This document shows positions 1 through 9,000 of a stretch of 9,801 nucleotides of DNA, in pieces. The position numbers were made by a program. The stretch is taken from contig JAZGDW010000264.1 of assembly GCA_036478295.1 (NCBI GenBank), positions 1 to 9,801 of the forward strand. The letters are read 5' to 3'. Positions within the stretch are counted from its first letter, which is position 1, and the number at the start of each line of letters is the position of its first letter. Source of the DNA: Candidatus Krumholzibacteriia bacterium. GTDB taxonomy: Bacteria > Krumholzibacteriota > Krumholzibacteriia > WVZY01.

Positions 1-3000
1 TGATAAAAATACCCGCGCCGTGAAGGGTTCGGTGTGGTCTGGAGTATCCCCGCATCCTCGAGTTGTTTGAGGCGCGTGGAGAGAAGCGCCTTCGGGATCC
101 CGGGCAGGCCGGTGGCGAGTGCCGAGAAGGTTTCGCAACCCATCAACAAATTCCGAATGATGATCGGCGTCCAGCGCTCCGCCAGGATTTCGGAGGCCCG
201 GGCGATGGGACAGTATTGACCATAAGTACGCACATCCTGAAGGTAGTCTCAGGAGTCGGAACTGTCGAGTTCAATTTTTGAACCTAATGATCGCCGTCAT
301 GAGATTGCGTTTCGGCATGACTGCTTGAGAATCGGTGGAAGACCGCAGGTAGGTGCCGGAGACGACGGGCAGCATCCTTAAACCGCCTGTGGCGAGTGAA
401 ACGAGCGGGTATTGGTGTTATCGTTACCGTCAAACGAGGAGGCGAAGTTGCCGGTTCTAGAGGACCGTGTGCCCCCGCTAGTTCTAGCGGCTCTCCGCGA
501 AAGGGACAGACTACCCGAGCATATTCGGATTACACTCATAACACTGCTTGAGGGCTATGAGCGAGGGACGAGGTCATGGCTTCGTGAACAAGGAGCGTGT
601 GCGCGGGCCCGGTTCGATCGTCCAAAGATCTATTTTTTTCGGATTTCCCTAACGGCTAATCATTGCACCAGTTCGAGTGACAGCTTTGGTCAGTATCGTC
701 CTCCGGAGCTTGCCCCGCGAATCCATATCACGTATCCTTCCGCCGGGCCTGAAAAACGGCCTTTGCACCGCACTTCCCTTGTCGTCCCCTGGCATCGTTT
801 GGCTGCCGAGCAGCGAATGAGACACTGCCATTCTTGACAACGGCTATCAACCGGGAGGGATGACCATGCAACGCCTCACTCCTACACACGGCCTACTTGT
901 CCTTTTGACCGCTGCGCTTGCGGTTGGCTGGACCGTCGAGCAACGCCCCACGGGCGACACCGTAACCGTCACACGGGGTGACGTTATCTATGCGGACCGA
1001 GGCAGCTCGATTCACGTCTACCGGCAAAACGACCAGTCGTATGACCTGGTCACGTCAATTGAAACCGAGCCGCGAGCGACTCACGACGACCACCATCACG
1101 ACGGAAGGCACGAGCACGGCGGCACTTTCAGTTGCTCGTACAACCACGTGCATGACCACCGTGACCATCACCACTATGATGACGACCCGTACCACGGTTC
1201 GGCAGCGCAGTTCGTCGTGACCGGGTCAACACTGATATACGTGTACGACGGCACCACCGTGGTGACGCTCGACATCTCCAGGCCCGACCAGCCGAGCGAA
1301 GTGGCGCGAATGGATGTCGGATGGAAGATCGAATCGATCACGGCCGTGGACAACGCAGTGATCATCTCCGGGGACCGCGGCGGTTATACCTATGACCCCG
1401 GCAACACAAACCTAGAGCTTCGTGACCTGGAATATTAGAATGGTGCGGGCGGGTGGCTGTAACATCCCCCGCCGCTATCACGTGGCTATACCGACAAATG
1501 GTGGAGGCGGCGGGAATCGAACCCTTTTCACCCACGAACCCTAACCCGATGATGGTGCATGACTTCGGCTTTTACTGTGTGAAAATGCTTAGGTTGCCGC
1601 GCCGTTTCTATTCCCCTAGAGTCCCCTCCAGTCCCCTGGAGTCCTCCCCAGTCTTGGAGATATTTTGGAGACGGCGTGCACGAACCGAAGCGCGTTCTGC
1701 GTCTTCTCCGAGTACCCATCTTTCGGGCATCGAAATCGTCAATGACGCGAGACGGCTTCTAAAAAAGTTGCGACAGGGGTCGTGAGGATGTATACTTGGG
1801 CTACCCTTGGGGGTAGCCATGACGTCCGTTCATTTGCCTATCTGATTGAGACCGCCAGTCGACACATCCGGGATGACCCCTGAGCGCACCGCTGGGTTGA
1901 GCTAGGCATGCGATGGGGTTCCCATGTTTCACGCTCGTTCTTTCCGAAGTCAACACCCAACATTCGCTATTCTGATTTCTGTTGTCGTCCTCGCGTCGAG
2001 CGTGTTTGCACACGCGAACGGCCGGGCGACAACGTCGGGCTGGTTCTTGCAGAATCCATTACCGCAGGCTAATGAGCTGCTCGACGTATCCTTCTCGGAC
2101 GCGAACTCGGGCACGGCCGTGGGAGAGGTTGGCACGATTGTCCGCACCACCGACGGCGGCGCGACCTGGGTTGTACAGACTAGCGGTACCGCCGAGCATC
2201 TCGAGGGCGTTTGTTTCGTGGATGCGAATACCGGTACTGTAGTCGGTTATAACGGTACAGTTCTGCGAACATCGGACGGGGGTACGACCTGGGTCAGCCA
2301 AACCAGCGGGACCACCGAGCGGCTTCTTGGAGTGTCTTTCAGCGGCCCCAATGTGGGCACGGCAGTGGGAGATGCTGGCACGATTGTTCGCACGACTGAC
2401 GGGGGTATCACCTGGGTCGCTCAGACGACCGGGACCAACAACCGCCTTCACGACGTTTCGTTTGTCGATGACAGCATCGGGACGGCGGTGGCGCAGTTGG
2501 GGGGAATCTATCGCACAACAGACGGCGGCGCGACATGGGTTAGCCAGACCAGCGGGACCAGCGAATGGCTCTTCGGTGTGTGTTTTACGGATGCGAATAC
2601 CGGTACAGTAGTCGGTGCTAGAGGCACGATCCTCCACACGACCGACGGAGGTACGACCTGGGTCAGCCAAACCAGCGGGACCACCTTTCTGCATCTTTAC
2701 GGCGTCTCCTTTGCCAACGCGAGCATCGGTACTGTCGTGGGATTGGGCGGCGCGATTCTACGAACAACCGATGGGGGTGCCACCTGGATAGCTCAGACAA
2801 GCGGCGCACTCACTCTCAGAGCTGTTGCTTTTGCCGGTGCAATGACCGGCACACTGGTGGGTGGTAGTGGCAGCATCATGCGCACCACCAATAGGGGGGC
2901 GACATGGGTCGACCAGACCAATGTGATCAAGCAATTCCTTACTGATGTTTCTTTCACAGATGCGAATAGCGGCACCGCCGTGGGAACGGGCGGTGCAATC

Positions 3001-6000: not shown

Positions 6001-9000
6001 TCCCGTCACGATCACGTTGCCCGAAGCGTCAGCCGCGACCCCACGGCTGTGCTCATTGCTCGTTCCCCCGAAGCGCTGGCTCCACTGATGTGCACCGCTC
6101 GCATCGTACTTCGCCACAAAGACATCATCGGAACCCGCGCTCACGACATTGCCACCCCCGAAGTCCACCGTGCCATGGAAGGATCCCGTCACGATCACGT
6201 TGCCCGAAGCGTCCACCGCGATTGCCCAGCCGAAGTCACTGCTCGTTCCCCCGAAGCGCTGGCTCCACTGATGCGCACCGCTCGCGTCGTATTTCGCCAC
6301 AAAAACATCGTAGTCTCCCGCGCTCACGAGATTGCCGCCCCCGAAGTCCGCCGTGCCCACGAAGAATCCCGCCACGATCACATTGCCCGAAGCGTCCACC
6401 GCGATCGCCGCGCTTTCGTCACTGTTCGCTCCCCCGAAACGCTGGCTCCACTCGTGCGCACCGCTCGCGTCGTATTTCGCCACAAAAACATCGGCAGAAC
6501 CCGCGCTCACGAGATTGCCGCCCCCGAAGTCTACCGTGCCCACGAAGAATCCCGTCACGACCACGTTGCCCAAAGCGTCCACCGCGATCGTGCAGCCGAC
6601 GTCGTTGCTCGTCCCTCCGAAACGATGGCTCCACTCGTGCGCACCGCTCGCGTCGTATTTCGCCACAAAAACATCGTAGGCGCCCGCGCTCACGAGATTG
6701 CCGCCCCCGAAGTCCACCGTGCCATGGAAGTACCCCGTCACGATCACGTTGCCCGAAGCGTCCACTGCGATCGCCAAGCCTTCGTCCCAGCCCGTCCCCC
6801 CGAAACGCTGGCTCCACTCGTGCGCACCGCTCGCGTCGTATTTCGCTACAAAAACATCCTGAAGACCCGCGCTCACGAGATTGCCGCCGCCGAAGTCCGT
6901 CGTGCCCCACATTCTTCCCGTTAGGATCACGTTGTCCGAAGCGTCCACCGCGACCACCCGGCCGTAGTCACTGCCCGTCCCGCCGAAGCGCTGGCTCCAC
7001 AGGTGGACGGGAGCCGCGGCTCCCGCCGATACCGACAAAAGCAGGATTCCCAGGCCCAGACAAAAAGCCCGTTCATTGCGCCTCATGCTGTCACCTCCGT
7101 GCGACGGGACAACCGTCTGTGACTTGACCATGAAACAACGAACATTACTGTGCGTCCTCGTGGCGCAGGTATTGCATAGTATAACACAACGTGAATGGGC
7201 GTTGGTGGCGGCGGCGGGCGAAGTCCGTGCCGACCTGGTGAGCGCAGCGAACAGAGATTGGTGGAGGCGGCGGGAATCGAACCCTGTCGCGGTGCAAACC
7301 TTAACCTAATGGTGGCGTGCGATTTCGGTCACTACCGCTTCAGGAAACTGGAGTTACTCCGCCGCCACTTGTCCTCCACAGTCCCCCCGAATCCACTGCC
7401 GTCCACCCCAGTCATGGAGATATATTGGAGACGCTGCCGGAGTAGCCGATCCGTGGCGAAGTGTTCGTCATCGGTCACATAACTTCCTTGCGCTCAGCCG
7501 CGCTCTATCACTTCGCCTCGCCACCGCCCAGTGCGTTCAACCGCTGCTGTGCATCCGCCACTTGCGGCAGTCCCTCGTCTGCCTCAGACCACATCTCGAG
7601 AAACTTTGTGAACGCGGACACCGCATCCGCCGGACGCCCCATCTCCTCATAGATTTTGCCCAGCTCGTAATGCGACAGCGCGTGGCCGCCGTAGATTCGG
7701 AGCAGCTCCTTGTGGACTCGGGCAGCTTCATCCGACCGACCGGCTAACTGGTGGGCTCGTGCCATGGCCTCCCGCCACTCGATATCGTGCAAGCCTCCAG
7801 TAGGGACTCCTTGCCGTCGCATCTCATTTAAAGACGCCAGAGCCTTTTTGGGATTTCCCTCCGCGAGCGCAATGTCTGCAGTGACCTTGCGCACCAGGAA
7901 TCTTACTAGACCGCCATATTGTTTCTCCAGAGGCAAGAGCTCTGTCACAGCAGACCGAGCTGCTTCGAGGGATTCCAGGGCGACCAACGCCCTTGCGCGG
8001 GCCCGTATCACTTCGCGCCGCGTAAAGCGCGTCTTGGAACGCTTCGCCAGTGCTTCGGCCCAGCCTAGCACCTCTTGGGCCCGCCCCATCCGCAGTAGAA
8101 GGCGATTGCGGCTGGTGTCAAGGCTGATCTCACTATCTAGACCGGATACGTCTTGCCGGGCCTCTTCAAAGAGTTCGAGCGCTTTGCTGAAGCGGCCCGT
8201 CTCGGCATGAAGCTGGGCAAGGCCCGGCCAACCCCCGGTGGGAATAATGAGCCTAATCCGTTCTTCAGGTGAGAGATCACTCTCTCTCAGGATTCGCTCA
8301 AATATTTCGATGGCCCGGTCCAGATTGCCCCGGCAATATGCAGAGTAGCCCATGCTTTCCGGAAAACCTGGACCGATCTTGAGAGCCTGGCGAAAAGCTG
8401 TCTCGGCACTGTCGGGTAAGCCCAGGCTCAAGAATCGAAGCCCCCGCTCATCCCAGGCGTTCGCTGTTCCCGGATGTCGCTTGATATAGACCTGACTCCA
8501 TTCGAGCGCCTCCTCCAGGCGACCCATGGACGCGAGTGCCTGACCATATCTGCTACCGAAGCCCAGATCGTCCGGGTAAAGGGCAAGCCCCCTTTCGGCG
8601 ACCTGGATTGCCTCGTTGGAATACCAGTACCAAGACAATAGCGCAGAGAGATCGCCGAGAACCTCTCGGTCATCCGGCCAGCGCGAGAGCATTTCCCGGT
8701 ACGTACTCAAAGCATCTTGGATGCGCCAGTCCAACCGCTGCCGGTACGCGTCGAGCCGCAGGCGATCCTTGAGCCCTAAACGCGTCCGCAGTTCCCATGC
8801 CCTCTCGGCAAAGGAGCGAGCGCGATCGCTCGCTACCTTAAACGGGGTTGCCCTGGCCAGCTCAAAAAGGGCCAGGGCGAATGTGGAGTCGAGCCTCACT
8901 GCATGCTCTAGTTCACGTATTGCTTCCTCCTCTCGAACTTCCTCACGTGCCAGAACGCCGGCCACGTAGTGTCGATAAGCCTGCGGCGAAGCCGTGGTCA

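Follow-up and report, generated by a model that had tools for sequence, protein, structure and literature searches.

Repeats with a tmRNA-derived core in a Krumholzibacteriia bacterium are probably attR-type sites of tyrosine-integrase islands

Williams is said to have described, in 2002, the T loop as a sublocation of integration within tRNA and tmRNA genes. Insertion at the T loop is also found in the ssrA islands of Dehalococcoides, where a conserved motif lies directly upstream of the repeat (PMC3146451). These islands rely on a CcrB-type serine recombinase, a 20-bp repeat and a 15-bp motif, and 15 of the 31 islands have no integration module, which led the authors to suggest cis-mobilisable elements. 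The tycheposons of Prochlorococcus (bioRxiv 10.1101/2020.12.28.424599) are tyrosine-recombinase elements that occupy several tRNA genes and the tmRNA gene; newcomers push older elements outward, and remains of tRNA genes and of decayed integrases occur throughout the islands. The two systems are the closest known cases to the array described here.

The window analysed is the entire contig JAZGDW010000264.1 (9,801 nt; contig C184 of genome G000) of a Candidatus Krumholzibacteriia bacterium. It holds four direct copies of a ~175-nt element, all on the minus strand (Table 1). Repeat and profile searches agree with the preliminary description on these four copies, and the fifth, on another contig (C224:15136-15311), is confirmed as well. 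The repeat search delimited the copies at 1496-1673, 4120-4297 (83% identical to copy 1), 5174-5351 (66%) and 7256-7433 (69%), and the profile search recovered those of Table 1 with E values from 3e-47 to 5e-58. Pairwise identity among the copies is 68-98%, so that the lower bound given earlier stands and the upper one, 96%, has to be raised. The fifth copy shares 98% identity with copy 4 over 168 nt, and the likeness continues for another 130 nt on the upstream side (96.6% over 298 nt), the last ~55 nt of the gene upstream of copy 4 and the spacer being duplicated along with it.

Read on the minus strand, the element opens with an outer box, TCTCCA-N5-TCTCCA, in which two hexamers stand 11 bp apart. 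Two to four GGGGAC-type units at an exact 10-bp spacing follow, then ~80 nt more of conserved sequence, which completes an arm of ~150 nt, and finally the core. The borders are sharp at both ends in an alignment of 31 copies. Aligned copies differ by indels of 10-22 nt that are not multiples of 3, and hence the element is not coding.

Table 1. Features of the window (contig positions; P′, the integrase side of the core)
Feature	Position	Strand	Details
Copy 1	1496-1673	-	Box 1655-1673; core 1499-1524, tmRNA-derived; repeat and profile search
Copy 1, GGGGAC units	1621, 1631, 1641	-	GTCCCC/GTCCTC on the plus strand
Gene between copies 1 and 2	1924-4062	+	712-aa BNR/Ycf48-like repeat protein; PSII_BNR, 1.2e-58
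Copy 2	4120-4297	-	Box 4279-4297; core 4123-4148; repeat and profile search
Copy 2, four units	4235, 4245, 4255, 4265	-	
Gene between copies 2 and 3	4348-5145	-	265-aa zinc-ribbon protein; gene prediction, domain scan
P′ arm remnant, directly after copy 3	5112-5168	-	GTTCTACCG motif 5160-5168; degenerate box 5112-5131; assigned by eye against P′ sequences of intact islands, not scored statistically
Copy 3, short form	5175-5331	-	Box 5313-5331; core 5177-5202; profile search
Copy 3, two units	5289, 5299	-	Unit region ~20 nt shorter
Gene between copies 3 and 4	5419-7131	-	570-aa SBBP beta-propeller repeat protein with T9SS C-terminal sorting domain; domain scan
Copy 4, divergent subtype	7257-7433	-	Box 7415-7433 (TCTCCAATATATCTCCA); core 7259-7284; profile search
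Gene upstream of copy 4	7508-9799	-	Ser/Thr kinase C-terminus and TPR repeats; open at contig end

The tmRNA gene of this genome lies at C256:23525-23879, and its resemblance to the copies is confined to the last 26-30 nt. All four cores of the window are identical to ssrA at 26 of 26 positions, a block of identity with the 3′ portion of the target gene. The earlier claim that every copy ends in the last 26 nt of the tmRNA thus holds for the window, but the C224 copy ends after ...CCCGCCGCC, 9 nt short of the end of the core. In the copies, the 5′ strand of the T stem is altered to AAGGG, ACGGG or CAGGG, versus GCGGG in ssrA, so the identity begins directly before the T loop. We rejected the copies as tmRNA or tRNA-like RNA genes: this T stem is not kept, ARAGORN predicted no such gene, and Rfam returned tmRNA alone on the element, at 14-16 bits versus a gathering score of 47, with no family at threshold. 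As stated before, there is no conserved RNA structure: RNAalifold on 31 copies gave no consensus structure and no covariation (-1.9 kcal/mol), and single-copy z-scores ranged from -1.5 to +1.0 (RNA parameters). Contig C256 continues for 6 kb beyond ssrA without any copy, and the array does not adjoin ssrA in this assembly.

The four sites enclose three islets of 0.9-2.4 kb. The 712-aa protein carries an FlgD_ig (2.3e-10)/T9SS-type domain at its C-terminus, and its gene is oriented opposite to the other cargo, which bears out the mixed gene orientation already held against a likeness to integron cassettes; across loci, all four combinations of neighbour orientation occur. The predicted start of the 265-aa gene overlaps the P′ remnant, and the true start may be further in. 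The G+C content of the cargo (0.59-0.615) equals that of the genome (0.598), so the islets bear no mark of recent import. A tblastn search (E<1) found no integrase or integrase fragment in the window, and none of its seven scanned proteins has a PF00589 domain. The seven PF00589 matches of the genome (E<=1e-5) all lie on contigs without a copy; the closest relative in this genome of the integrases described below (L116/L237) shares 26-28% identity with them, and a tRNA-Glu gene stands ~3.3 kb away from it.

Of 41 genomes compared, 35 gave matches, many of them solely through their own tmRNA end. Matches of at least 150 nt, counted by eye in the match rows, occur in 13 genomes of the order with our own included (G000, G004, G006, G007, G008, G011, G012, G015, G018, G022, G023, G027 and G028), in line with the at least 12 reported before. 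The maximum of 17 matches in one genome rises to 18 (G007). Behind ssrA of the complete genome G015 come three copies in the orientation of that gene, at gaps of 3.3, 1.8 and 10.5 kb, and none of the 10 scanned ORFs of this array contains PF00589, both close to the previous description. The general Pfam scan, which included the proteins of the window and of the G015 array, showed no serine-recombinase family either, although no search was aimed at one. The dispersed copies noted in another complete genome were also recovered (G011); there and in G012, both of them complete genomes of the same family as ours, copies are single and far from ssrA, which requires rearrangement or integration elsewhere and speaks against an island origin. 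The related genomes are ~80% identical in DNA and rearranged. A site lies downstream of its target gene in the same orientation in G015, G018, G023, G031 and five loci of other phyla; in our own genome, copies and ssrA occupy separate contigs.

The tmRNA gene is not the sole target of the sites: behind genes for tRNA-Ser, -Asp, -Pro, -Gly or -Glu, the same arm ends in a core of the respective tRNA. Among 105 distinct full-length copies at loci from genome contigs, the core is of the tmRNA type in 44 and of another type in 61. The core is the end of the upstream tRNA gene, in the same orientation, at seven loci (Ser and Asp, two each; Pro, Glu and Gly), and full copies stand 1.1-3.5 kb behind the tmRNA gene at six distinct loci (L069, L078, L098, L113, L137 and L117, the last being the same stretch as L010). 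Across several phyla and at least six target genes, the arm is 65-88% identical.

Ordinary tyrosine-integrase islands of 7.6-18 kb have the element as their end distal to the integrase. At a cutoff of E<=1e-60, the integrase (L116 type; PF00589, 6e-27) occurs in 60 of 201 Vicinamibacterales genomes, and its 3′ end converges on a complete target gene in 26 of 30 loci, namely, tRNA-Ser (12), -Asp (2), -Gly (1) and -Ala (1) and the tmRNA gene (10); the other four end at a tmRNA end at the contig end (one), at a copy of the element (two) or at neither (one). In eight of 16 extended islands, a distal arm lies 10.8-18 kb from the integrase, and its core matches the target gene in seven; in the eighth (L220), the contig stops before the core. 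Against an island origin, eight of the 16 show no distal arm within 13-20 kb. One further locus (L079) has the identical layout across 7.6 kb, and two metagenome contigs (L255 and L265) combine integrase and distal arm as well, the first ~70 nt of the L255 arm being nearly the same as those of copies 1 and 2 of the window. Within the phylum itself, an integrase 60% identical to this type lies within about 35 nt of ssrA in 2 of 208 genomes, with a P′ box GTCTCCAAAATGTCTCCA or GTCTCCAGAATGTCTCCA. In G023, of the same order, 49 C-terminal integrase residues (69% identical) remain 113 nt from ssrA, and beyond this stump come a one-gene islet and then arm and core; comparable stumps occur at L119, L138 and L143.

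Arm-type repeats flank the core on both sides. The same box is found ~45 nt past the target gene, beside the integrase, and its type co-varies within islands: the P′ hexamer is of the distal-arm type in L213, L218, L220, L222, L223 and L265 (TCTCCC/TCTCCA, TTGCCA and CCTCCA types), both boxes are TCTCCA in L079, L212 and L255, and types are mixed in L224 and L225. The P′ features of intact islands, to which we compared the remnant after copy 3, sit between the tRNA or tmRNA gene and the integrase.

We consider it probable that the copies are attR-type sites of a widespread family of tyrosine-integrase islands that enter tRNA and tmRNA genes in the segment between the T loop and the 3′ terminus. 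In the free island, arm, core and integrase gene would be contiguous; integration would place the integrase against the target gene and the arm with the displaced core at the far end. Repeated entry at ssrA, or at the core that an earlier copy provides, would stack islands head to tail, and later deletion of the integrase genes would leave short islets, each closed by arm and core. The box would be recognised by the integrase and the 10-bp-spaced units by an accessory factor, and the array of the window would have been born at ssrA and separated from it later. Against this view count, besides the points named above, the lack of an integrase in the window and of any PF00589 match on the copy-bearing contigs of this genome, the position of the array apart from ssrA and the unremarkable G+C content of the cargo. 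Its islets, integrase-less and bounded by attR-type sites, are most likely decayed islands, an origin that the preliminary description had named as the objection to its own proposal; to judge from their sequences, the integrase stumps at target genes and the P′ remnant after copy 3 point to such decay for some islets. Integrase-less islets may still be movable in trans.

It is possible, if unlikely, that the islets are not wrecks but cis-mobilisable cassettes in live exchange: an integrase of the family, on an island or encoded elsewhere, would excise a circle with one arm and core, which would re-enter at ssrA or at another copy, an exchange integron-like in effect. The authors of PMC3146451 raise the same idea for the Dehalococcoides islands without integration module. 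Of 41 non-redundant intervals from a tRNA or tmRNA gene or a copy to the next copy, 38 are free of integrase (median, 2.4 kb), a count in which long islands are under-represented, as the loci span 10 kb per side at most. Genes also change place: a 511-aa gene is second in the G015 array and first in G031 (79% aa identity), and a TMEM260-like gene that heads the array in G023 is placed past the array in G031 (91% aa identity). Against live exchange, the junctions of G015 and G031 lack the precision of cassette boundaries, and about 950 nt adjoining ssrA differ between the two. Where no integrase is resident, arms from different genera and families are still 70-88% alike, which continued use fits at least as well as decay, and the short form of copy 3 recurs at 88% identity in another genus (G004:C36:1-160) with a different downstream neighbour. 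Nevertheless, the stumps and P′ remnants mark at least some islets as decayed islands; moreover, we saw neither a circle junction nor a presence/absence variant, and the joints in public contigs have sides of 27-28 nt, i.e., the core alone.

We also regard as doubtful a reading in which the shared arm is a portable module that, with any tRNA or tmRNA 3′ end, turns the DNA between copies into a cassette mobilised in trans by incoming integrases of the family. If true, single genes, here mostly for T9SS-secreted proteins, would be exchanged across phyla in an integron-like manner among sediment and soil bacteria, and the hexamer type of the box would set which integrase moves which cassette.

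A MITE-like small repeat with a tmRNA-like tail, spreading by itself between genes, is very improbable. The sharp borders, the single dispersed copies in G011 and G012 and the 18 matches in G007 would suit it, as would the read depth, summed over all organisms, which in four sediment metagenomes is 10-100 times as high at the copies as in neighbouring bins. We nonetheless rejected a MITE because the repeat listing of the window has no terminal inverted-repeat pair at the copy ends, and the flanks of 31 aligned copies are unrelated, with no sign of target duplication; furthermore, the tail always equals the upstream tRNA or tmRNA gene where one exists, and the element closes integrase islands at the expected position. 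A regulatory module or small RNA (promoter, terminator or tRNA-like transcript end) serving neighbouring secreted-protein genes is scarcely credible: copies are always intergenic, often 23-90 nt past the stop of a co-oriented gene, and T9SS cargo proteins are frequent among the neighbours, but neighbours take every orientation, neither a conserved structure nor covariation is present, the T stem is altered, Rfam stays below threshold, and a regulatory role leaves unexplained why the core switches with the upstream tRNA gene.

Attributing the copies to tyrosine-integrase islands would explain a conspicuous multi-copy repeat of Latescibacterota-type genomes and tie it to one integrase family that, in several little-studied phyla, uses at least five tRNA genes besides the tmRNA gene. 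The co-variation of the boxes on both arms offers a testable code for integrase-arm recognition, and the arrays show how genes for accessory proteins of the surface and for secreted proteins are stored behind ssrA. If the islets move in trans, they would provide a simple route of gene exchange in uncultured sediment bacteria.

The preliminary description proposed an integron-like system. Site-specific recombination sites, a core from the T loop to the CCA of the tmRNA and the lack of a linked integrase on the contig remain valid parts of that proposal, and the islets resemble integron cassettes in being short, mostly single-gene units that each end in a recombination site and are stacked at a single point of entry. 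We reject an integron, however, because there is no IntI-type gene with attI, no folded attC-like hairpin (RNA parameters) and no uniform gene orientation; unlike attC, the element is conserved in sequence and has arm-type repeats. Nor is a new mechanism built on tmRNA-derived sites needed, given that tRNA cores are also used and that the cognate tyrosine integrase family is found at ordinary islands. Islands of the Islander/TIGER type share the identity block from the T loop to the 3′ end, the integrase beside the regenerated gene, the displaced gene fragment at the far end and tandem stacking; here, by contrast, one ~150-nt arm is common to several phyla and the box stands on both arms. Literature searches, which did not extend to the island databases, gave no account of such a shared arm. 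Compared with the Dehalococcoides islands, as far as the cited text describes them, our sites involve a tyrosine integrase, a 26-nt core, a ~150-nt arm and tRNA targets as well. The tycheposons belong to another host group and integrase lineage, and the available text describes no long common arm for them, whereas the units here are mostly single genes without a mobility gene. The arrangement adds one more instance to a known habit of mobile islands, and its integrase-less islets are of a known kind.

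The assembly of this genome comprises 316 contigs with 59.8% G+C, and the window is one complete contig, C184, of 9,801 nt. The four same-direction copies of a ~175-nt element reported in the preliminary description proved real, all on the minus strand and with sharp borders in alignments. On that strand each copy starts with CGTCTCCAAAATATCTCCA (copy 4 has the variant ...AATATAT...) and terminates in GGGTTCGATTCCCGCCGCCTCCACCA. As had also been described, the last 26 nt are the same in all four copies and equal the end of the tmRNA gene (ssrA), and the remainder of the element does not match that gene. 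Between a box of two hexamers (TCTCCA-N5-TCTCCA) and this 26-nt core lie GGGGAC-type units at an exact 10-bp spacing. Among 31 copies from relatives, the unit stretches differ in length by 10, 11, 20, and 22 nt, which excludes a coding frame and is consistent with sites placed on one face of the helix. A fifth copy, on another contig of this genome, is a near-duplicate of copy 4 plus the 130 nt upstream of it and stops 9 nt short of the core end.

Features of the element, its islands, and its neighbourhood (C184 is the window; C224 and C256 are other contigs of the same genome; L numbers are loci fetched from other genomes)
Feature	Location	Detail
Copy 1	C184:1496-1673 (-)	three GGGGAC-type units
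Copy 2	C184:4120-4297 (-)	four units
Copy 3	C184:5175-5331 (-)	two units
Copy 4	C184:7257-7433 (-)	three units
Fifth copy	C224:15136-15311	
tmRNA gene (ssrA)	C256:23525-23879	
CCGCCGCCTCCAC	C256:23920-23935	41 nt past ssrA
BNR/Ycf48-like repeat protein, T9SS-type tail	C184, repeats at 2076-3746	14 units of 120-126 nt
SBBP propeller protein, T9SS-type tail	C184, repeats at 5739-7005	six to seven 183-nt units, 80-90% identity
Zinc-ribbon protein	C184	
Kinase-TPR protein	C184	upstream of copy 4
Raised-depth bins	C184:1309-1635, 3925-4251, 7195-7521	
AAA_14/DUF4143 ATPase genes beside copies	L008:8763-9785, L016:6269-7600, L019:9072-10217, L072:10203-11453, L076:633-1889	
IS110-family transposase gene directly upstream of copy, and copy of another genus with the same junction	L013:8858-10223 (G008), L016:7678-7900 (G007)	DEDD_Tnp_IS110 + Transposase_20
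Inverted copies, contig C1 of G008	L012:346-514, L013:10063-10223	
TraG/TraD-like coupling protein	L116:12983-15055	in integrase island
Family integrase at tRNA-Gly	L216:198-4552 (G083)	second complete tRNA-Gly gene 4.3 kb downstream
tmRNA 3'-end fragment	L009:9715-9794 (G031)	80 nt, 7 kb downstream of ssrA

A scan for the box pattern, with one genome per species, returned 114 loci, most of them with the full element, in Acidobacteriota (many Vicinamibacterales), Myxococcota, Latescibacterota, Krumholzibacteriia, Eisenbacteria, Gemmatimonadota, Planctomycetota, and others. Among 105 distinct full-length copies the core is of tmRNA type in 44 and of another type in 61; in every case of a co-oriented upstream tRNA gene (7 loci: Ser two, Asp two, Pro, Glu, and Gly one each), the copy ends in the T-loop-to-3' segment of that very gene. 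The element thus consists of an arm that is conserved and a core that is exchangeable and derived from the target gene.

A tyrosine integrase family goes with this arm. On a Corallococcus contig (L079), a tRNA-Pro gene is followed by a convergent tyrosine integrase 24 nt away, 6 kb of genes, and then an arm with a tRNA-Pro core; on a Vicinamibacterales chromosome (L116), an integrase 48.5% identical to the former adjoins a copy of the element. L116-type integrases occur in 60 of 201 Vicinamibacterales genomes and, in 26 of the 30 loci returned, the gene on which they converge is a complete one, for tRNA-Ser, -Asp, -Gly, -Ala, or tmRNA (of the other four, one faces the end of a tmRNA gene at the edge of a contig, two an element copy, and one nothing). 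Half of the 16 extended islands carry the arm 10.8-18 kb away, with a core equal to the end of the target gene in 7 of these 8; in the eighth, L220, the contig ends before the core. Two metagenome contigs also hold an integrase-bearing island, L265 and L255, the latter of about 9.6 kb at ssrA, with box and units that hardly differ from those of window copies 1 and 2. In G083 (L216) a family integrase lies at one tRNA-Gly gene with a second, complete one 4.3 kb downstream, and no arm was found in the 20-kb stretch covered. Since the L116 island encodes a coupling protein, some members of the family may be mobilisable or conjugative. No close characterised relative of the integrase was found: phage integrases do not exceed 30% identity, and Xer-type chains of the PDB match with E 1e-15 at best. 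Twenty regions around other integrases of this genome and its relatives, together with the C224 and ssrA contigs, showed no element beside any of these integrases; several of them sit close to a tRNA-Met, -Glu, -Thr, or -Lys gene. All are members of other island families.

The islands carry a second box in the same orientation, ~45 nt past the target gene at the integrase 3' end (the P' side). Its hexamers differ between islands (TCTCCA, TCTCCC, TTGCCA, or CCTCCA), and the box of the distal arm is of the same type as the P' box in L213, L218, L220, L222, L223, L265, L079, L212, and L255; types are mixed in L224 and L225. Boxes paired in this way behave as arm-type integrase sites would, which makes them candidate binding sites for the integrase.

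Such integrases also occur in the window's own lineage. In 2 of 208 genomes of the phylum, a 60%-identical integrase lies no more than about 35 nt from ssrA, accompanied by a P' box of the TCTCCA type; in G023, a genome of the same order, only the last 49 residues of one are left beside ssrA, followed by a one-gene islet and then arm and core. Stumps of 79-107 residues were seen at three loci in other phyla. The window itself is devoid of any detectable integrase fragment, in agreement with the earlier statement that no integrase is linked, and copy 3 is followed by a GTTCTACCG motif and a degenerate box, both typical of the integrase side. We thus consider it likely that the copies are attR-type sites, i.e., distal island ends, of this integrase family and that the array consists of stacked islands from which the integrases are gone; islands would have been stacked first and the integrases lost thereafter. 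The resident ssrA of this genome may itself bear an old integrase-side remnant, as the sequence shortly past it is similar to the P' box, of CCTCCA type, in islands that target tmRNA genes.

Among 41 genomes of the class, the window's family and one sister family have copies that are full or nearly so. The copies stand directly behind ssrA and in its orientation in G015, G018, G023, and G031, which belong to a single genus, and are single and distant from ssrA in two complete genomes from the window's family, G011 and G012. Array positions of related cargo differ among relatives. Synteny comparisons (window versus G001, G004, G007, G008, and G011; G011 versus G012; G001 and G004 loci) yielded scattered gene-family matches only, and no clean empty site was readable because the relatives are only ~80% identical and rearranged. 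An alternative is that islets without an integrase are mobilised in trans. The integrase is absent from 38 of 41 intervals that run from a tRNA/tmRNA gene or a copy to the next copy (median 2.4 kb) in a sample not picked by integrase, but this sample is blind to long islands. Arms are well conserved despite the lack of a resident integrase, and the array lies away from ssrA in this assembly, as do the dispersed copies of G011 and G012. For these reasons we retain mobilisation in trans, as an unlikely explanation. A contig with both a tyrosine integrase domain (PF00589) and a copy was found once in the 41 genomes, in G008, where the integrase is placed between copies with no core beside it. The two inverted copies of that contig have their truncated 3' junction and their outer flank in common and enclose 21 kb with HEPN, pPIWI-associated nuclease, M78/HTH regulator, and integrase genes; they stem either from an inversion between copies or from the assembly folding back where the contig starts. 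The fragment in G031, 92.5% identical to the tmRNA gene 3' end of G018 and continued by the same flank as ssrA itself, suggests a second type of island, one whose identity block is longer.

Other readings fared less well. A promoter or terminator is unfitting because neighbouring genes flank the copies in each of the four possible combinations of orientation. A phage attP site was rejected, the 18-nt box pattern being present in 24 viral contigs and the full copy in none, with two weak partial matches only. An RNA gene or structure is dismissed since ARAGORN found no RNA gene in the window, tmRNA is the sole Rfam match (14-16 bits, where the gathering score is 47), the T stem has not kept its 5' strand, and, consistent with the earlier folding result, the consensus fold of 31 copies reaches only -1.9 kcal/mol and individual copies do not outdo shuffled sequences in folding. 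Indels of 10-22 nt speak against a protein-coding role for the antisense ORFs that overlie each copy, and this reading is discarded.

Clustering of 838 ORFs near copies revealed kinases, T9SS proteins, rve transposases, ECF sigma factors, MacB/PadR pairs, and AAA_14/DUF4143 ATPases as recurrent neighbours, and no common recombinase. The ATPase genes adjoin copies across several genomes and phyla, and in L072 one is the sole ORF called between tRNA-Ser and the arm. The copy adjoining an IS110-family transposase gene has its first ~10 nt replaced, and the same junction sequence recurs at a copy in another genus, which suggests that this insertion sequence targets the box. Both T9SS cargo genes of the window are internally repetitive.

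Among the public runs listed, no RNA run contained the window stretch, and the best DNA runs contained 0.20-0.26 of its sampled words. Contigs from these runs break off at the borders of the element, and their joints are uninformative on excision because their 27-28-nt sides equal the core. Over copies, summed contig depth was 10-100x that of neighbouring bins in four sediment/marine metagenome runs; those communities contain the element in abundance and in multiple copies.

The new capture mechanism proposed in the preliminary description is not borne out, as the mechanism falls in a known class. What appears undescribed in the literature searched is an island family with a long shared arm and paired boxes: a literature search, with island databases outside its scope, found no description of the arm or of the integrase family. 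Islander has mapped such islands on a large scale, according to excerpts of PMC4383910. In Dehalococcoides, as parts of PMC3146451 describe, tandem islands behind ssrA are delimited by a repeat of ssrA's 3' end, and about half of them are without an integration module and, in the authors' view, may be cis-mobilisable; those islands use a serine recombinase, in contrast to the tyrosine integrase of the family described here. Closer to the latter in enzyme type, tyrosine-recombinase elements are stacked at tRNA and tmRNA genes in Prochlorococcus, with partial tRNAs and degraded integrases in the stacks, as stated in portions of bioRxiv 10.1101/2020.12.28.424599.
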